Of a stretch of DNA of 18,695 nt, positions 523 through 7,666 are shown piece by piece. The notes beneath the pieces were generated by a model. The model made no database searches and was not told where the DNA came from. It worked only from the letters and a program-made list of their open reading frames with translations. The DNA is from a virus. Taxonomy: Duplodnaviria; Heunggongvirae; Uroviricota; Caudoviricetes. Numbering within the stretch: the first letter of the stretch is position 1; each line of letters starts with the position of its first letter. The DNA lies in IMG/VR virus record IMGVR_UViG_2609459839_000004, one strand, 5' to 3'. The translations under genes and the position numbers were made by a program.

Positions 523-1370
523 AAGTACTCAACGAGCTAAGGCAGTTTTATCCTCTTGATGAGCTTCTCAGGGCTGCGGAGATACCGCGCAGTACGTTTT
601 ATTATCATCTAAAGGCTCTCAGCAAGCCTGACAAGTATGCGGACGTTAAAAAGCGTATTAGTGAGATTTATCACGAGAATAGAGGCCGATACGGATACCG
701 TAGGGTAACGCTGTCTCTTCATCGAGAAGGGAAACAGATTAACCATAAAGCTGTTCAGCGCCTGATGGGAACCCTCTCACTTAAAGCAGCGATTAAGGTC
801 AAGCGATACCGCTCTTACAGAGGAGAGGTAGGGCAAACCGCCCCTAATGTTCTCCAAAGAGATTTCAAGGCTACGCGGCCAAACGAGAAGTGGGTTACCG
901 ATGTTACTGAATTTGCAGTCAATGGGCGCAAGCTGTATTTGTCTCCAGTAATAGATCTCTTCAACAACGAAGTTATTTCTTACAGCCTTTCGGAAAGACC
1001 AGTGATGAACATGGTTGAGAATATGCTCGATCAGGCATTCAAAAAGCTTAATCCTCACGAGCATCCTGTTCTGCACTCTGACCAGGGATGGCAGTATCGT
1101 ATGAGAAGATATCAAAATATCCTTAAAGAACATGGTATTAAACAAAGCATGTCCAGAAAAGGCAATTGTCTGGATAATGCTGTGGTGGAGTGTTTCTTTG
1201 GAACCTTAAAGTCGGAGTGTTTTTATCTTGATGAGTTCAGTAATATAAGCGAACTGAAGGATGCTGTTACGGAATATATTGAATACTACAACAGCAGAAG
1301 AATTAGCCTGAAATTAAAAGGTCTGACTCCAATTGAATATCGGAATCAGACCTATATGCCTCGTGTTTAA
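519..1370 (+). CDS. insK: IS150 transposase OrfB (InsK), DDE catalytic domain; expressed mainly as an InsJK fusion
   Basis: 283-aa ORF in the -1 frame relative to insJ; the track start at 519 is GTG; integrase-core-like segments ([15 protein letters not shown]) present. Confidence 0.88.
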
Positions 1371-1412
1371 CTGTCCAACTTTTTGGGGTCAGTACAAAGT
1401 GAGGCCAGTCTT

Positions 1413-1619
1413 ATGTCTCGACAACTGAAGATTAGCCTCTTACGTGCCGAAAGGCAAGGAGAAGCAGGCTATGAAGCAGCAAAAGGCGATGTTAATCGCC
1501 CTGATCGTCATCTGTTTAACCGTCATAGTGACGGCACTGGTAACGAGGAAAGACCTCTGCGAGGTACGAATCCGAACCGGCCAGACGGAGGTCGCTGTCT
1601 TCACAGCTTACGAACCTGA
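1413..1619 (+). CDS. mok-like reading frame overlapping hok
   Basis: ATG at 1413 preceded by GAGG at 1401-1404; frame overlaps almost all of hok in another frame and stops just before the hok stop, as mok does in hok/sok loci. The track ORF start at 1383 is TTG inside the IS150 end. Confidence 0.4.
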   Translation: MSRQLKISLLRAERQGEAGYEAAKGDVNRPDRHLFNRHSDGTGNEERPLRGTNPNRPDGGRCLHSLRT

Positions 1620-1626
1620 GGAGTAA
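1471..1626 (+). CDS. hokD: Hok-family type I membrane toxin (HokD/RelF-like), 51 aa
   Basis: Translation MKQQKAMLIALIVICLTVIVTALVTRKDLCEVRIRTGQTEVAVFTAYEPEE has one TM helix and the conserved C-terminal Hok motif; AAGGAG upstream of the ATG. Matches HokD as recalled. Confidence 0.82.
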   Translation: MKQQKAMLIALIVICLTVIVTALVTRKDLCEVRIRTGQTEVAVFTAYEPEE

Positions 1627-2067: not shown

Positions 2068-3126
2068 GTGCGGGTATTGCTTCGACCTGTTCCGGTACCG
2101 GAACTCGGGCTGGTGGTCCTTAAGCCTGGTCGTGAATCCATGCAGGTATTTCATAACCCTCGAGTGCTGGTGGAGCCGGAACCGAAAAGCATGCGCGGTC
2201 TGCCGTGCGGAGTTGTTCCTGCCATTCGCCAGCCGCTGGCGGAAGACAAATCATTGCTGCCATTTTTCAGCAATGAGCAGGTAATTCGTGCTGCCGGTGG
2301 CACTGGTGCACTGTCTGACTGGCTCCTGCGTCATGTTAAATCCTGCCAGTGGCCTCATAGTGACTACCATCACAGTGAAATCGTCATACATCGTTATGGT
2401 ACCGGAGCGATGGTGTTGTGCTGGCACTGCGACAACCAGCTGCGTGACCAGACATCCGAATCACTCGAGCAACTTGCTCATCAAAACCTGTCAGCATGGA
2501 TGATTAACGTCATACGCAATGCAATGAATGGTACGCAAGAGCGGGAATTATCGCTGGCTGAGTTATCCTGGTGGGCGGTCTGCAATCAGGTGGCGGACGC
2601 GCTACCGGAAGCGGTATTACGTCGTTCGCTGGGGTTGCGTGCGGAAAAAATCCGCTCAATGTACCGTGAAAGCGACATCGTACCGGGAGAGCAGACCGCC
2701 ACCAGCATACTGAAGCAGCGCACAAAAAATATTGCGCTGCCACTTCACGTCCACCAGCAACAGCCCCCACTCCAGGAAAAGACGTTAGTAAGCATCGCCG
2801 TTGATCCGGAGTCACCGGCTCAGTATCTCCAGCGCCAGAAACCACAACGGGAAGAGATGCCTGTATACACGCGCTGGGTAAAAACGCAGAAATGCATGAC
2901 GTGCGGTAATCAGGCAGATGATCCGCATCACATCATTGGTCATGGCCTGGGAGGTATGGGAACAAAGGCTGATGATTTGTTTGTTATTCCGCTGTGCCGT
3001 AAATGTCATAACGAACTGCACGCCGGGGTAAAAGATTTTGAAGAAAAACACGGCAGCCAGCTGTTGTTGCTGATTCGTTTTTTAATGCACGCGAGAAATT
3101 CGGGTGTCCTGAAGTGGAAAGCATGA
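2068..3126 (+). CDS. DUF968-family phage protein (YdfU-like) with C-terminal HNH-like Cys/His motif
   Basis: C-terminus CMTCGNQADDPHHIIGHGLGG...PLCRKCHNELH is an HNH-type motif; GTG at 2068 follows GGAGG at 2058-2062; alternative ATG start at 2140. This gene sits just upstream of Q in Qin-type prophages. Confidence 0.65.
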   Translation: MRVLLRPVPVPELGLVVLKPGRESMQVFHNPRVLVEPEPKSMRGLPCGVVPAIRQPLAEDKSLLPFFSNEQVIRAAGGTGALSDWLLRHVKSCQWPHSDYHHSEIVIHRYGTGAMVLCWHCDNQLRDQTSESLEQLAHQNLSAWMINVIRNAMNGTQERELSLAELSWWAVCNQVADALPEAVLRRSLGLRAEKIRSMYRESDIVPGEQTATSILKQRTKNIALPLHVHQQQPPLQEKTLVSIAVDPESPAQYLQRQKPQREEMPVYTRWVKTQKCMTCGNQADDPHHIIGHGLGGMGTKADDLFVIPLCRKCHNELHAGVKDFEEKHGSQLLLLIRFLMHARNSGVLKWKA

Positions 3127-3492
3127 ATGACTGAACGCATAGAATTTGTTTTGCCTTACCCGCCAACGGTGAACACTTACTGGCGACGTCGTGGCAGCAC
3201 ATATTTTGTATCAAAAGCCGGTGAGCGTTATCGCCGTGATGTGGCGCTTATTGTTCGCCAGCAGCGGCTGAAATTAAACCTGTCCGGAAGGCTGGCGATA
3301 AAGATTATTGCAGAGCCACCGGATAAGCGCCGCCGCGACCTGGACAATATCCTGAAGGCACCACTGGATGCGCTGACGCATGCCGGACTACTTATAGACG
3401 ACGAGCAGTTTGATGAAATCAATATTGTGCGCGGTCAGCTCGTTCCTGGTGGGCGGCTGGGGATAAAAATCACAGAACTGGAGTGCGCATGA
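3127..3492 (+). CDS. rusA: RusA-family Holliday junction resolvase
   Basis: 121 aa with LPYPPTVNTYWRRRG and RRRDLDNILKAPLDAL motifs as in RusA; typical nin-region position. Confidence 0.85.
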   Translation: MTERIEFVLPYPPTVNTYWRRRGSTYFVSKAGERYRRDVALIVRQQRLKLNLSGRLAIKIIAEPPDKRRRDLDNILKAPLDALTHAGLLIDDEQFDEINIVRGQLVPGGRLGIKITELECA

Positions 3493-4178
3493 ATAACCAG
3501 TATTTACAGTTTGTGCGTGAGCAGCTCATTATCGCCACCGCTGATTTGAGTGGGGCAACAAAAGGTCAGCTTGAAGCCTGGCAAGAGAATGCCATGTTCG
3601 ATACAGGGCGTTACAGGCGTAAAAAAATCCGGTACCGCGATGAAGTGACTGGAAAAATGATAACGCGGGATAATCCACCAATCCCGGGAAAGCAATCGCT
3701 GGCGAAAGGTTCATCAATTGCCCTGGTCAGTCCGGTTGAGTTTTCGACATCATCATGGCGACGCGCCGTTCTGTCTCTTGAAGAGCATCAGAAGGCGTGG
3801 GTGCTGTGGGTATACAGTGAAAATCCGAGTTGGGATTATCAGGTGGTCATTGCGAAATGGGCGTGGGATAAGTTTCAGGTGCATTTTGGCACCAGAAAAA
3901 TTACAGGGAAAACGCTTGAGCGTCTGAAGAAATTAATCTGGCTGGCGGCGCAGGATGTCAGGGGGAGGATTACTGGGCGTGACGTCTACCAGCGACAGGA
4001 ACTTGCCAGACTGTGTGGAGTTAAGCCTGACAACTGGAGCCATAATTATGCGAACTACTGGCGTGAGATGTGCGACATTTTTAAGAAACTCGATACAGAA
4101 TCCTTGATTTGCACCGTGAAAATGAGATCGCAACAAAAAGCGACCTTTTCACGACGAGATATTGCAAAAGTCAATTAA
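3489..4178 (+). CDS. Late-gene antiterminator Q (QuuQ-like family)
   Basis: ~229-aa ORF directly upstream of a promoter-plus-terminator unit and the cargo/lysis region; ATGA overlap with the rusA stop. Family assignment is by synteny and recollection, not a verified alignment. Confidence 0.6.
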   Translation: MNNQYLQFVREQLIIATADLSGATKGQLEAWQENAMFDTGRYRRKKIRYRDEVTGKMITRDNPPIPGKQSLAKGSSIALVSPVEFSTSSWRRAVLSLEEHQKAWVLWVYSENPSWDYQVVIAKWAWDKFQVHFGTRKITGKTLERLKKLIWLAAQDVRGRITGRDVYQRQELARLCGVKPDNWSHNYANYWREMCDIFKKLDTESLICTVKMRSQQKATFSRRDIAKVN

Positions 4179-4191
4179 ATCGCATACATTT
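4163..4191 (+). promoter_or_regulatory. Candidate late promoter pR' (sigma70 -35/-10) overlapping the 3' end of Q
   Basis: TTGCAA (4163-4168), 17-bp spacer, TACATT (4186-4191). Confidence 0.4.
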
Positions 4192-4226
4192 TATGTAAAT
4201 GTGATATTTTGCCGTATAGTGTGTAA

Positions 4227-4249
4227 ACCCGCTTAAATGCGGGTTTTTT
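4227..4249 (+). terminator. tR'-like intrinsic terminator downstream of Q
   Basis: acccgc-ttaaat-gcgggt hairpin followed by a T run, ~35 nt downstream of the predicted start site. Confidence 0.6.
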
Positions 4250-4322: not shown

Positions 4323-5087
4323 ATGGAAGAACAGCACGGTAATTACTTTATAAAACGAATTCAGTTGATTGGAAGAGGTGCATTTGGCTTTGTTGAACAC
4401 GTTAAGGTTTACAACCTCAACAAGGGTGAATGTGGGGATTATGCTAGAAAGGTTTTAGCCCCCGAAAAACCAGAGCTTTTGGCGCAAATAGAGCAGTTTA
4501 GAAGGCGTTTTAAAAGGGAGGTCGTGTATCAATCACATTGCGTACATAGCAATATTGTTCCTATTTATTTGTGCGATTTGTTTGCCGAGAATCCATGGTT
4601 CATTATGGATAAAGCAGAATGTGATCTTGAGCACGAAATAACGAACAACCTTCTTACAACAGATCAAAAAATTTCAATAGTGAAAATGGTATTAGATGGT
4701 GTAGCTCACATCCATGCGAAAGGCTATTTACACAGAGATATAAAACCATTTAATGTCTTGCGATTTAGCGACGGAACATACAAGGTGTCTGATTTTGGTC
4801 TGGTAAAAGATACAAATCCCGAAGGGGATACCACTAAATTGACCGAGATCGGTACCCGTATGGGAAGTACAAGATATATGGCTCCCGAGATTTTATATAA
4901 TGCCGAGTATTCAGTTAAGACTGATGTTTATGCGGTGGGGCGGTTAATTGAGGACTTAAATTTAGATGATAAAAAAATAAAGCCTATCATAGCGAAGTGT
5001 ACCAGGATGGATAAAGATGATAGATATCAGACAATAGATGATGTGGCGTTTGATTTTGTGCATTCTTTTTTAAGGAGTGAGTCATGA
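4323..5087 (+). CDS. Eukaryotic-like (Hanks-type) Ser/Thr protein kinase, minimal catalytic domain
   Basis: Gly-rich loop GRGAFGFV, putative catalytic Lys in YARKV, catalytic loop HRDIKPFN, DFG, YMAPE, DVYAVG; AT-rich codon usage unlike the flanking phage genes. Confidence 0.85.
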   Translation: MEEQHGNYFIKRIQLIGRGAFGFVEHVKVYNLNKGECGDYARKVLAPEKPELLAQIEQFRRRFKREVVYQSHCVHSNIVPIYLCDLFAENPWFIMDKAECDLEHEITNNLLTTDQKISIVKMVLDGVAHIHAKGYLHRDIKPFNVLRFSDGTYKVSDFGLVKDTNPEGDTTKLTEIGTRMGSTRYMAPEILYNAEYSVKTDVYAVGRLIEDLNLDDKKIKPIIAKCTRMDKDDRYQTIDDVAFDFVHSFLRSES

Positions 5088-5827
5088 TTCAGCTGATAGC
5101 GACTTCATCATTCTCGTATCCAAAAGAACCAGGTAGGGTCAACGAAGATTCATTGCTTCCTCCCAAAATTGTAGGGGATGGCATCTTATTTGCCGTAGCT
5201 GATGGTGTAGGTTCATACACTGGTGCCAGTCAGGCTTCATCAATGGCAATTGCTGAGCTTTCAGCATTGACAAGCTTATCTTTTGACACAGTTCCGGATG
5301 TATTTGATGAAGTTAAGCGAAAGGTTATGTCGTTAGCTGATGTTAATGATGAGTTCGATAAAGCTGCTACTACACTTACGTTTTGTTATGTTTGTGATAG
5401 CGGAATTATTATTGGTCATATTGGTGATTGTCGTTTGTATTGCATTGGAGAGAAGAAAGCATACCAATTGACGAAGGACGATACCAGGCATCAGATGCTA
5501 ATTGATCAGAATATTTTTAAACCCAGAGATTTGAAGGATAAACCGGGCAAAAATATCTTAACGACGGCTATAGCCTCAAATGTTGATATGGAATACGACT
5601 GTGATTTTATCACATGGAAAGATTTACCTAGTATTAACGGGGTATATCATCTGTGTATCATGTCTGATGGGGTTCATAACGTTTGGGAAAAACGCCCCAG
5701 ATTTACATCAAATACGATGAGTAATAGTCAGAAGTTTTCTAATGGCATTTTGCGTCGTATAGAGAGAGCCGGACCTGATGATGACTTTTCTTTAGTAAGT
5801 ATAATGGTGCGTGTGACGTCAGATTAG
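5084..5827 (+). CDS. PP2C-family (PPM) Ser/Thr protein phosphatase
   Basis: Motifs NEDS, AVADGVGSY, GHIGDCRLY, LTKDDT, MSDGV in PP2C order; AAGGAG SD inside the kinase 3' end; ATGA start/stop overlap with the kinase. Confidence 0.8.
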   Translation: MIQLIATSSFSYPKEPGRVNEDSLLPPKIVGDGILFAVADGVGSYTGASQASSMAIAELSALTSLSFDTVPDVFDEVKRKVMSLADVNDEFDKAATTLTFCYVCDSGIIIGHIGDCRLYCIGEKKAYQLTKDDTRHQMLIDQNIFKPRDLKDKPGKNILTTAIASNVDMEYDCDFITWKDLPSINGVYHLCIMSDGVHNVWEKRPRFTSNTMSNSQKFSNGILRRIERAGPDDDFSLVSIMVRVTSD

Positions 5828-5899: not shown

Positions 5900-5924
5900 A
5901 GGCTGCCCTCAGGCGGTCTTTTTA
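5900..5924 (+). terminator. Intrinsic terminator after the kinase/phosphatase operon
   Basis: ggctgcc-ctca-ggcggtc hairpin (with G-U pairs) followed by ttttt. Confidence 0.4.
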
Positions 5925-6046
5925 TGCTCGAAAATTGATGCAGTACGTTAAACGCGCTGGTGGTTGCGAATACCGGTCTTTCAGCTTGCTGGCTTTTTAG
6001 ACAAGAGTTATTGGTATGTCACGTTAACCAGAAAAGGGAAAAAGAC

Positions 6047-6244
6047 ATGCTAAAACAGCAGGATATGACCGAAACCGCCAGAGTGGTGTTTAATGAATTA
6101 AGCGTCACCGAACCGGCGACCGTCGGGGAAATTGCGCAGAATACTTACCTTTCACGCGAACGCTGCCAGTTAATACTGACTCAGCTTGTTATGGCGGGTC
6201 TGGCAGATTATCAGTTCGGTTGTTACAGACGCCTTCCTCAGTGA
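6047..6244 (+). CDS. Small winged-helix/HTH-like protein (65 aa) upstream of the methyltransferase
   Basis: ATG at 6047 after a purine-rich stretch; segment ATVGEIAQNTYLSRERCQLILTQLVMAGL resembles an HTH recognition unit. Confidence 0.4.
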   Translation: MLKQQDMTETARVVFNELSVTEPATVGEIAQNTYLSRERCQLILTQLVMAGLADYQFGCYRRLPQ

Positions 6245-6394
6245 AGGTTTTTTAATTTGTGGTAATGGGCGGCTGGTGGGTGTTAGCGGCACCTGCCAGC
6301 CATCTGCTCATGCGTTGGGGTCACAAGCAAACCTCAGGCCCATCTGCTTTGCGCAAAAGCGGTATGAGCCTATCAGAGAAGTGCTTATTGATCT

Positions 6395-7444
6395 ATGGCC
6401 AATACTGTAAAAATATCCAGTTGTGAGTTAATCAACGCTGATTGCCTGGAATTTATCCAGACCTTACCGGAAAATTCTGTCGATCTGATAGTCACAGACC
6501 CGCCATACTTTAAAGTGAAGCCCGAGGGCTGGGATAACCAGTGGGAGGGCGACGATGATTACCTGAAATGGCTGGACCAGTGTCTGGCGCAGTTCTGGCG
6601 GGTACTGAAGCCTGCCGGAAGTCTTTACCTGTTCTGTGGTCATCGCCTGGCATCTGACACCGAAATCATGATGCGTGAGCGCTTTAATGTGCTGAACCAC
6701 ATTATCTGGGCGAAGCCGTCCGGACGCTGGAACGGGTGCAATAAGGAAAGTCTGCGGGCGTATTTTCCGGCAACAGAGCGCATTCTGTTTGCAGAACATT
6801 ATCAGGGACCGTATCGCCCGAAAGATGATGGCTATGTGGAGCAGGGGCGCGAGCTAAAACAGCACGTCATGGCCCCGCTGATTTCTTACTTTCGTGATGC
6901 GCGTAAATCACTGGGAATAACGTCAAAACAGATAGCGGAAGCCACCGGAAAGAAAAACATGGCTTCGCACTGGTTTGGTACCAGTCAGTGGCAGTTACCG
7001 AACGAGGGTGATTACAACAAATTGCAGGCGTTGTTTGCGCGTGTTGCGGCAGAAAAACATCAGCGCGGGGAACTGGAAAAGCCACACCACCAGCTGGTCA
7101 GCACATACAGTGAGCTGAACCGGCAGTATACGGAACTGCTGAGTGAATATAAAAATTTGCGGCGGTATTTCGGTGTGACGGCGCAGGTTCCGTACACCGA
7201 TGTCTGGACGCATAAACCGGTGCAGCACTATCCAGGGAAACATCCGTGCGAAAAACCGGCAGAAATGCTGCAGCAGATAATCAGCGCAAGTAGTCGTCCT
7301 GGTGATCTGGTTGCGGATTTTTTCATGGGGTCGGGTTCAACGGTAAAAGCGGCGATGGCACTGGGGCGTCGTGCGATTGGTGTTGAGCTGGAGACCGGAC
7401 GTTTTGAGCAGACAGTCAGGGAAGTTCAGGATTTAATCGTTTGA
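6395..7444 (+). CDS. Orphan DNA methyltransferase, beta-class amino-MTase (N6-adenine or N4-cytosine)
   Basis: DPPY catalytic motif near the N-terminus and SAM-binding FxGxG (DFFMGSGST) near the C-terminus, the beta-class order; no adjacent restriction endonuclease gene seen. Confidence 0.85.
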   Translation: MANTVKISSCELINADCLEFIQTLPENSVDLIVTDPPYFKVKPEGWDNQWEGDDDYLKWLDQCLAQFWRVLKPAGSLYLFCGHRLASDTEIMMRERFNVLNHIIWAKPSGRWNGCNKESLRAYFPATERILFAEHYQGPYRPKDDGYVEQGRELKQHVMAPLISYFRDARKSLGITSKQIAEATGKKNMASHWFGTSQWQLPNEGDYNKLQALFARVAAEKHQRGELEKPHHQLVSTYSELNRQYTELLSEYKNLRRYFGVTAQVPYTDVWTHKPVQHYPGKHPCEKPAEMLQQIISASSRPGDLVADFFMGSGSTVKAAMALGRRAIGVELETGRFEQTVREVQDLIV

Positions 7445-7455
7445 AACGGATGAGA

Positions 7456-7484
7456 TTGCAGAATTAATTACGCACCATTATTAT
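7456..7484 (+). promoter_or_regulatory. Candidate sigma70 promoter for the tRNA cluster
   Basis: TTGCAG (7456-7461), 17-bp spacer, TATTAT (7479-7484), ~10 nt upstream of the first tRNA 5' end. Confidence 0.45.
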
Positions 7485-7493
7485 TCTGCTCCC

Positions 7494-7569
7494 GGCCCTT
7501 TAGCTCAGTGGTGAGAGCGAGCGACTCATAATCGCCAGGTCGCTGGTTCAAATCCAGCAAGGGCCACCA
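7494..7569 (+). tRNA. tRNA with CAU anticodon, most likely tRNA-Ile2 (lysidine-type, reads AUA)
   Basis: Cloverleaf: acceptor GGCCCTT/AAGGGCC, D-arm GCTC-AGTGGTGA-GAGC, anticodon loop CTCATAA, T-arm GCTGG-TTCAAAT-CCAGC, encoded CCA. Resembles ileX more than elongator Met as recalled; CAU alone cannot separate Ile2 from Met. Confidence 0.8.
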
Positions 7570-7576
7570 TCACATA

Positions 7577-7653
7577 CCGCCATTAGCTCATCAGGAAAGA
7601 GCGCCAGCTTTCGAAGCTGGTTGCGCGGAGTTCGGGTCCCCGAAGGCGGTCCA
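7577..7653 (+). tRNA. tRNA-Arg(UCG)-like, non-canonical; possibly degenerate
   Basis: Anticodon stem-loop CCAGC-TTTCGAA-GCTGG gives anticodon UCG; D-arm GCTC...GAGC; acceptor starts with C and has one mismatch, T-stem has one mismatch, T-loop TTCGGGT lacks the usual A58. Boundaries approximate. Confidence 0.5.
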
Positions 7654-7666
7654 TTATCTGTATCCT

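Follow-up and report, generated by a model that had tools for sequence, protein, structure and literature searches.

How can a cell tolerate a prophage gene whose product is expected to methylate every adenine? The question is raised by IMG/VR record IMGVR_UViG_2609459839_000004, an 18,695-nucleotide (nt) stretch that we analyzed whole and refer to as the window. It comes from a Qin-like lambdoid prophage of Escherichia coli, and the closest genome is that of strain E275a (99.7% identity). At positions 6395–7444 the window encodes a DNA methyltransferase of the M.EcoGII family, preceded by a 150-bp spacer and a small gene of 65 codons. Our reading, to which we give a probability of roughly 70%, is that the enzyme would be made late in lytic growth, when Q-dependent transcription reads through the terminators upstream of it, that a structured RNA leader would gate its translation, that it would serve anti-restriction, and that the 65-amino-acid (aa) protein is a non-obligate companion. 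The four elements at the center of this reading are as follows.

6047–6244, plus strand: gene for the small winged-helix protein, 65 aa (stop codon 6242–6244).
6231–6253, plus strand: hairpin P0, spanning the stop codon of the small gene and followed by a U run; terminator- or attenuator-like, adjoining the 5′ end of the leader (terminator scan).
6258–6394, plus strand: structured 5′ leader of the methyltransferase gene (covariation and covariance model).
6395–7444, plus strand: M.EcoGII-family beta-class N6-adenine DNA methyltransferase, 349 aa (Pfam PF01555).

The initial annotation described an orphan beta-class methyltransferase with a central insert resembling a helix-turn-helix (HTH), and both parts of that description held up. 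Pfam PF01555 (N6_N4_Mtase) matches residues 29–340 (E = 1e-44; 153.6 bits against a cut-off of 26.7), and the PADLOC Type II MTase model matches as well (E = 7.5e-160). Motif IV (DPPY, residues 35–38, nt 6497–6508) precedes motif I (FMGSG, residues 310–314, nt 7322–7336), which is the beta-class order; relatives of this class with solved structures are M.RsrI, CcrM and M.MboIIA. The HTH-like insert ITSKQIAEATG (residues 175–185, nt 6917–6949) falls inside the segment that matches the target-recognition domain of M.EcoGII, modeled in the SUPREM paper as a four-helix domain with an HTH (residues 160–237). No restriction endonuclease gene is annotated in the E275a prophage, in the window or in eight related contexts, in agreement with the orphan status first proposed.

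The window protein is identical to M.EcoGII at 317 of 350 positions (90.6%, full length), with two 1-residue gaps and an alignment that is unbroken through residues 135–260. This identity rests on a sequence from the supplement of the SUPREM paper, because the exact M.EcoGII protein was not found among the cluster representatives returned by our protein search; the supplement sequence is a machine-read print with a few reading errors, and both gaps are probably such errors. Identity to Anc291 is 85.3% and to SUPREM 71.4%; both are reconstructed ancestors that were assayed and found active on DNA and RNA. According to the SUPREM paper, the site-specific enzyme M.PflMI is only 27% identical to M.EcoGII and lacks the long charged linker that M.EcoGII has along with its HTH target-recognition domain. 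The window enzyme shares with M.EcoGII and M.EcoGI a length of 349 aa, the order DPPY, HTH domain, FxGxG, a prophage location and the lack of a restriction partner.

Judged by its sequence, the window methyltransferase is a member of the M.EcoGII family and an ordinary copy of a well-known prophage gene, and it is expected to methylate adenine irrespective of sequence context. Because it is about 91% identical to a non-specific enzyme, no single methylated motif is to be expected, and the earlier expectation of one new motif was misplaced; filing the gene under the correct family averts a wasted search. Nor is the gene itself new, since the module of small open reading frame (ORF), spacer, methyltransferase and tRNA genes is present in 2877 of 5426 complete E. 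coli genomes, with at most eight copies per genome. The module has 91.5% nucleotide identity to that of phage phiP27 and about 89% to those of many phages carrying Shiga toxin (Stx) 2a and of phage 1720a-02; the last aligns to window positions 5915–7560 in one piece (88.9%). With the family in about half of complete E. coli genomes and one of its enzymes already sold as a reagent, the methyltransferase gene itself is routine.

What is known of M.EcoGII sets the problem. It is a 349-aa beta-class enzyme from a prophage of E. coli O104:H4 C227-11 that methylates adenine in any context, as well as single-stranded DNA and RNA, and it is part of “a very large family” in E. coli phages that includes the enzyme of phage 1720a-02 (Murray et al. 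2018, PMC5778455). The gene is unexpressed in its native strain, and constitutive expression slows growth; its authors propose an anti-restriction use upon induction (PMC5778455). No detectable methylation came from M.EcoGI or from M.EcoGII in the native strain, and the homologues of O111 strains were equally silent. Protection of progeny DNA from host restriction, which the initial annotation had also suggested, is the accepted role of the family and would probably be that of this copy. A quite different role can be imagined, in which the methyltransferase is expressed in the lysogen, acts at a specific motif and regulates host or prophage genes. Orphan methyltransferases such as Dam and CcrM act in this way, and the module has a promoter-like block of its own. 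We consider this role very improbable, given the silence of M.EcoGI and M.EcoGII (the nearest enzymes to have been characterized) and of the O111 homologues, the growth cost of constitutive expression and the non-specific activity of the family.

Anti-restriction by a late, gated enzyme remains our preferred reading, and the candidate for the gate lies in the spacer. The published work on M.EcoGII (Murray et al. and the SUPREM paper) covers the enzyme only and mentions neither the upstream winged-helix gene nor the leader. The arrangement of small gene, spacer and methyltransferase recurs in hundreds of phage and prophage records and, on these comparisons, is not due to chance. The distance from the stop of the small gene to the methyltransferase ATG (6395) is exactly 150 bp in the window, as roughly stated in the initial annotation, and 149–150 bp across all the genera first compared, a strikingly conserved length. 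That annotation took the gap as mere spacing, yet no other part of the module is as well conserved or as informative.

The leader lies directly 5′ of the methyltransferase ATG in about 45 Enterobacterales genome loci, whether the small gene is present or not. When viral contigs were scanned for a 16-nt core, the leader model had 66 further hits, and in 66 of 66 the methyltransferase follows directly. Identity among leaders is still about 80% at distances that saturate the synonymous sites of both flanking genes. Coding potential was considered for the spacer and rejected: there are 1-nt insertions and deletions, the frames of the short ORFs differ between loci, and an in-frame TGA stands at 6389–6391, 3 nt before the ATG. 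No Rfam 15 family matched positions 6245–6394, either at E ≤ 1 when the whole window was searched or at E ≤ 10 when 5900–6450 was searched. The spacer is a conserved, non-coding, structured RNA leader and the constant companion of the methyltransferase.

The structure emerged from a plain MAFFT alignment of 47 loci, on which RNAalifold predicted four elements: P1 (UGGGC:GCCCA), a helix that pairs over a long range; P2, a hairpin of 12 bp; the helix P3; and the hairpin P4. The corresponding window positions are 6266–6270 with 6338–6342 for P1, 6271–6282 with 6290–6301 for P2, 6303–6308 with 6326–6331 for P3 (loop GGUCACA, 6319–6325) and 6346–6350 with 6356–6360 for P4; a tentative P5 pairs 6372–6376 with 6388–6392. 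When the structure was refined by hand on the same alignment, 93% of cells were paired, against at most 42% with slid partners, 12 pairs had changed on both sides, and none of 500 shuffles was as good. The predicted minimum free energy of the window leader is −62.7 kcal/mol (z = −4.2). A model-based alignment of 49 sequences gave the following values for each helix.

P1: 99% of cells paired; 4 of 5 pairs compensated.
P2: 92% of cells paired; 11 of 12 pairs compensated.
P3: 87% of cells paired; 3 of 6 pairs compensated, with CG, UA, AU and UG at one position.
P4: 94% of cells paired; 3 of 5 pairs compensated.

The unfitted MAFFT and RNAalifold results are the safer basis, because the 49-sequence alignment is biased in favor of the model. 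With a covariance model derived from the MAFFT alignment we found diverged leaders 5′ of distant methyltransferase homologues, with P1 and P2 rewritten yet still complementary. The scores of these copies were as follows.

Pseudocitrobacter: 64 bits.
Vibrio plasmid: 42 bits.
Unclassified gammaproteobacterium: 17 bits.
Acinetobacter: 13 bits, a weaker match.

These results bear directly on whether the spacer is conserved as DNA, in the form of a promoter, an operator or a recombination site, and not as folded RNA. Some features would suit such an element: in some copies TGTG(A/G)AAAT at the 5′ edge looks like an extended −10 element, in some GCTTTAGCGCTAAAGC (P4) forms a perfect palindrome, and the boundaries of the module recombine just 5′ of the spacer. 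The critical −11 A, however, is not conserved; P1 and P3 pair across 22–72 nt, with three different Watson–Crick pairs at one position; P2 is wholly rewritten yet complementary in Tatumella, Pseudocitrobacter, Vibrio and Acinetobacter; and P4 is variable and bulged in its distal part, as expected of a hairpin. Conservation as DNA is therefore improbable in our view, and we continue with a folded RNA. An extended −10 promoter at this edge (TGTGAAAAT) was rejected, since neither its −11 A nor its spacing is conserved.

Just upstream of the leader, 56 of 96 distinct contexts have a GC-rich hairpin that ends 11–14 nt before the leader's AATGGGCGG; its sequence is unrelated between contexts, and a U run often accompanies it. 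This hairpin is also found in loci without the small gene, and its counterpart in the window is P0. We looked for a second copy of the leader 5′ of the small gene in the window and found none. At one locus, L156, a truncated 5′ half of the leader (terminator, UGUGAAGAUGGGC and P2) lies at 8484–8596 on the minus strand, about 870 nt 5′ of an intact leader and separated from it by an unrelated ORF; this layout suggests recombination at the left edge of the module.

The small gene poses the next question. An AAGGGA stands 8–13 nt 5′ of its ATG, and AAGG is conserved 8–10 nt before the ATG among relatives. Homologues of 63–66 aa occur in E. coli, Salmonella, Klebsiella, Citrobacter, Buttiauxella and others. 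Compared with the Salmonella, Buttiauxella and Enterobacter copies, dN/dS (nonsynonymous to synonymous substitution rate) is 0.03–0.12 with dS > 1.5, so that synonymous sites are saturated. The small ORF is a real gene on which purifying selection acts strongly. The AlphaFold model of the protein (mean confidence score, pLDDT, 90.9) has three helices followed by two β-strands, a winged helix. Foldseek returned only generic winged-helix domains with a best E of 1e-3 (OhrR/MarR, IclR, N-terminal domains of O-methyltransferases, and SelB). The protein belongs to phrog_331, of unknown function (E = 1.4e-37); RefSeq labels it “TrmB family”, and the TrmB Pfam match is below threshold (18 bits against a cut-off of 25.6). 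This family is a narrow one: 61 representative clusters in a set of 1.84 billion proteins. As to the proposal that the ORF is HTH-like, selection and the predicted fold bear out a translated protein of a type that binds DNA or RNA; the more specific kinship did not follow, with no Xre/HTH_3, NCBIfam or PADLOC match in profile searches.

How tightly the small gene is tied to the enzyme depends on where one starts. Starting from the small protein, the methyltransferase lies 149–150 bp downstream in each of the three genera examined. Starting from the methyltransferase, one meets the small gene at 27 of 42 genome loci and at about 42 of 66 viral loci. About 36% are without it, and at these its position is taken by other ORFs or by nothing more than a terminator. 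At L156 the small gene is gone and only its stop-codon hairpin is kept. The link is old but facultative, because a winged-helix ORF also lies 5′ of a Vibrio plasmid homologue of the methyltransferase (56% identical) and yet the small gene is missing from about a third of loci. The 65-aa gene is thus real, linked to the methyltransferase and dispensable.

A promoter-like block precedes the small gene, and we aligned 25 upstream regions from different genera to define it. In the relatives it consists of TTGCTG, 17 nt and TATCTG, embedded in CCAGAGTTATCTGTATGTCAC; in every genus compared, an intrinsic terminator of unrelated sequence lies 5′ of it. The window version matches the sigma-70 consensus poorly, and the scan that gave the terminators did not report it. 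It looks like a weak promoter with a possible operator. The window features are these.

5900–5923, plus strand: intrinsic-terminator-like hairpin and U run, 3′ of a kinase/phosphatase gene pair and 5′ of the promoter-like block (sequence).
5986–6014, plus strand: promoter-like block of the small gene, TTGCTG (5986–5991), 17-nt spacer, TATTGG (6009–6014) (alignment of 25 upstream regions).

We also weighed a LexA box at CTGTATGTCAC and rejected it, its second half-site being absent.

The initial annotation likened the small ORF to the controller (C) proteins of restriction-modification systems. Put as a model, the 65-aa protein would be a transcription factor of the C-protein kind, repressing the methyltransferase promoter or setting its timing. 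The setting invites the comparison: C genes of type II systems are likewise small, of HTH type and placed just 5′ of the modification gene on the same strand. Here, at about 64% of loci in many genera, the adjacency on one strand is conserved and the spacing fixed; in the Vibrio plasmid locus, too, a winged-helix ORF sits 5′; the predicted fold is of a DNA-binding type; and the conserved block around the −10-like element could be an operator. C proteins differ, however, in having a five-helix Xre-type fold, a restriction gene to coordinate and a C-box. The window protein is a winged helix without Xre/HTH_3 homology, no restriction gene accompanies it, and a search of the 25-region alignment for a C-box-like operator 5′ of the small gene found only a conserved 3-nt dyad (GAC..GTC). 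The spacer, for its part, is conserved as base-paired RNA and not as an operator. At about one third of loci the leader and the methyltransferase persist though the small gene is absent, L156 retaining just the stop-codon hairpin, which makes an obligate controller role unlikely. The likeness to C proteins thus did not survive, and we think a controller of this kind unlikely, though less so than the other alternatives weighed here. The small protein may still be a regulator or partner of the methyltransferase.

If the small protein is not needed to keep the enzyme in check, transcription itself may do so. The initial annotation placed the gene in the late region, and it does lie between Q and the lysis genes. 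The features of the window relevant to its transcription, in addition to those above, are the following.

3483–4178, plus strand: Q antiterminator gene.
4162–4190, plus strand: candidate late promoter directly after the Q stop codon, TTGCAA (4162–4167), 17-nt spacer, TACATT (4185–4190) (sequence).
4215–4220, plus strand: −10-like TATAGT, about 25 nt beyond TACATT (sequence).
4225–4246, plus strand: first terminator after Q, AAACCCGC..GCGGGTTTTTT (terminator scan).
7758–7775, plus strand: terminator after the tRNA genes (terminator scan).

The module stands between Q and holin genes in E. coli, phiP27, Klebsiella and Salmonella; in Buttiauxella Q is 5′ of the module, and no holin gene was identified 3′ of it. 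Three different, unrelated Q families accompany the module, so it cannot depend on one Q-specific promoter. What these loci have in common is insulation by intrinsic terminators. In the window there are four between Q and the lysis genes (4225–4246, 5900–5923, 6231–6253 and 7758–7775), the first three of them 5′ of the methyltransferase. Because terminators flank the gene, its transcription most likely requires RNA polymerase that Q has made resistant to terminators and would be confined to late lytic growth. By analogy with pR′ and tR′ of lambdoid phages, we infer a late promoter after Q with a sigma-dependent pause site.

We propose the following sequence of events. Q-dependent late transcription would read through the terminators into the module. 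The leader, with P0, a three-way junction of P1, P2 and P3, P4 and a 3′ region that pairs across the bases before the AUG, would then add a translational gate. Once made, the enzyme would methylate adenines of replicating phage DNA non-specifically, and the progeny would resist many host restriction enzymes at once. The terminators would probably keep the methyltransferase silent in the lysogen, a point of weight given the harm that constitutive expression does to the cell.

The 3′ part of the leader is where such a gate would act. A ribosome-binding site of the GGAGG type is lacking 5′ of the methyltransferase AUG. Invariant here are the bases CUGAUCUAUG, and UGAUC (6389–6393) directly precedes the AUG (−6 to −2). 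The 3′ end of E. coli 16S rRNA, which we take to be …GGAUCACCUCCUUA, has a GAUCA just 5′ of the anti-Shine-Dalgarno sequence that is complementary to UGAUC. This is the only complementarity to the 16S 3′ end before the AUG, and since it is placed where the normal spacer would be, UGAUC may act as a weak, unusual ribosome-binding element. It can also pair within the leader, either with a local AUCAG (P5, AUCAG:UUGAU; 76% paired across relatives) or with the invariant P3 loop GGUCA (89%), which can alternatively pair with a 5′ UGUGA (89%). The local hairpin and GGUCA:UGAUC both cover positions −7 to −2, and these columns are too conserved to separate pairing from sequence conservation.

The core of the leader also has two predicted folds. 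Fold A, with the P1–P2–P3 junction, is under selection, as the covariation in P3 shows. Fold B was preferred by RNAalifold on a 15-sequence sample and is within 2–3 kcal/mol of fold A; we regard it as a candidate alternative state. Such a two-fold pattern is as expected of a switch, and the leader is a candidate for one. A broader proposal, which we hold tentatively and at well under even odds, is that the leader represents an undescribed class of cis-regulatory RNA that gates the translation of toxic, non-specific adenine methyltransferases in gammaproteobacterial phages by switching between folds A and B, with a late signal (the winged-helix protein, the enzyme itself, or S-adenosylmethionine or S-adenosylhomocysteine) exposing UGAUC.

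A gate on translation is familiar from phage Mu, in which Com opens a hairpin in the mRNA and thereby allows translation of the toxic protein Mom. In Acinetobacter, Vibrio and unclassified gammaproteobacterial loci, the AUG at the end of the leader starts a small zinc-ribbon ORF that overlaps the start of the methyltransferase. These Com-type ORFs were scored against PF10122 (Zn_ribbon_Com) and lie at 2820–3008 in locus L070 (48 bits), 2865–3050 in L063 (34.7 bits) and 2829–2939 in L066 from Vibrio (17.8 bits, under the cut-off of 22.9). Post-transcriptional control therefore has precedent in the enzyme family, because its distant relatives carry Com-type ORFs. The window itself has no com ORF, nor any ORF between leader and methyltransferase. 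The enterobacterial module either lost com or never had it, and its leader is fused directly to the enzyme's start codon.

The Mu com–mom region and the window module appear alike in joining late expression, toxicity and broad-spectrum adenine modification under layered control, in part at translation by way of mRNA structure close to the start; for the window, the translational layer is drawn by analogy. Com-linked, non-specific adenine methyltransferases are known in Mu-like prophages (Hin1523, Hia5 and Nma1821; PMC3299994) and are of the alpha class. The systems differ in that Mom is not a methyltransferase, Hin1523 and Hia5 are alpha-class enzymes, and the window leader is 5′ of the first cistron and not inside com. 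The Mu com–mom region, scanned with the leader covariance model, had no copy of the leader (6.4 bits). The leader gate on a toxic enzyme may nonetheless have a purpose akin to that of Com control of mom.

The same comparison raises the thought that the winged-helix protein could open the start region of the leader as Mu Com does, or could be a subunit that alters the substrate choice of the methyltransferase. In distant relatives the operon does include a translational activator of the Com type, winged-helix domains are capable of RNA binding (the fold matches include SelB domains), and the two nearly iso-energetic folds of the leader could be selected by a protein. The protein is nevertheless dispensable in about one third of loci with an unchanged leader; the Vibrio locus has both a winged-helix ORF and a Com-like ORF below the cut-off, so the two are not simple substitutes; and M.EcoGII is fully active by itself. 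A partner of either kind strikes us as a doubtful explanation, somewhat behind a transcriptional controller.

Several points weigh against the reading of a late, leader-gated anti-restriction enzyme with a non-obligate neighbor. The window enzyme differs from M.EcoGII by 31 substitutions, and its activity is read from its sequence. Covariation proves pairing, not function, and part of the pair counting used a model-fitted alignment. The 3′ part of the leader does not settle into a single structure: P5 is 76% paired and P6 81%, both pseudoknot candidates (about 89%) are indistinguishable from mere sequence conservation, and fold B, which consists of P1′ (AUGGG:CUCAU, 97.5% paired) and P7 (AGGC.CA:UG.GCCU, about 81%) enclosing P4, fits almost equally well. 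The candidate late promoter after Q matches the consensus at 8 of 12 positions only. The promoter-like block of the small gene could drive some expression in the lysogen, and an STnc100-type small RNA (sRNA) with its own terminator, downstream of the tRNA genes, implies further transcription units in the region.

The remaining features of the window are listed below.

1319–1626, plus strand: hok/sok-type toxin–antitoxin region (sok model 45 bits, under the gathering score of 59; hokD is annotated at the matching place in E275a).
After the hok/sok-like region and before Q, plus strand: DUF968 gene, then rusA.
About 4323–5087, plus strand: serine/threonine kinase gene.
5084–5827, plus strand: PP2C phosphatase gene.
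7494–7743, plus strand: three tRNA genes with anticodons CAU, UCG and UCU, co-linear with the methyltransferase as in Stx phages (ARAGORN).
7818–8007, plus strand: STnc100-type sRNA (Rfam RF02076, 132 bits against a gathering score of 47), with a strong terminator at 7977–7998.
8033–8368, minus strand: iraM (anti-adaptor protein), between the sRNA and the holin gene.
3′ of iraM: holin, lysozyme and Rz genes, then terminase, head and tail genes.

The kinase of the pair at 4323–5827 matches the PADLOC defense-kinase models mad6, PD-T4-6 and Stk2 (E from 1e-40 to 5e-28). The position occupied by this pair holds a GIY-YIG nuclease gene in phiP27, and in E275a an IS2 element is inserted just after the phosphatase gene, between it and the small ORF; the place between Q and the module has the look of a site for exchangeable cargo. 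The tRNA trio is the ileZ–argN–argO set known from Stx phages, with no stx genes 3′ of it here; ARAGORN calls the CAU tRNA a tRNA-Met, and it is ileZ (tRNA-Ile) in RefSeq relatives and in 933W and phiP27. The size and position of the STnc100-type sRNA recall the short pR′–tR′ transcripts of lambdoid phages, and it could mark another start of transcription in the late region. The iraM gene looks like an inserted host-interaction gene amid the late operon. Near the end of the tail genes, at 18164–18367 on the plus strand, there is an Rfam IS009 RNA match (112.5 bits, just below the gathering score of 117).

The closest parallels to this layout are the late “morons” of Stx phages (phiP27 and Stx2a phages), which have the same module, including the tRNA genes, between Q and the stx or lysis genes (80–92% nucleotide identity). 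They differ in that the window prophage is without stx and has the kinase/phosphatase pair where phiP27 has the nuclease gene. In phage 933W the module is absent, and pR′, the tRNA genes and stx come directly after Q. Another Stx-phage enzyme, the two-subunit 16S rRNA methyltransferase M.ECPA8_3172P-PNB-2 (bioRxiv 10.1101/2023.09.20.558713), had looked like a comparable pairing of a methyltransferase with a small partner but was set aside as a different system, because the fifth gene of the related phage PA28 (matching the gp5 position) encodes a 208-aa enzyme near the integrase end with its small gene downstream.

For the tolerance of a prophage gene whose product would methylate every adenine, the authors of the M.EcoGII work noted only silence; the terminators together with the leader would supply an answer that is concrete and can be tested. 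The leader, a structured RNA with good support but without a database entry, is tied to one gene family across Enterobacterales, Vibrio and, weakly, Acinetobacter. That makes it a good candidate for a new cis-regulator, and possibly a tool for the tight control of toxic genes.

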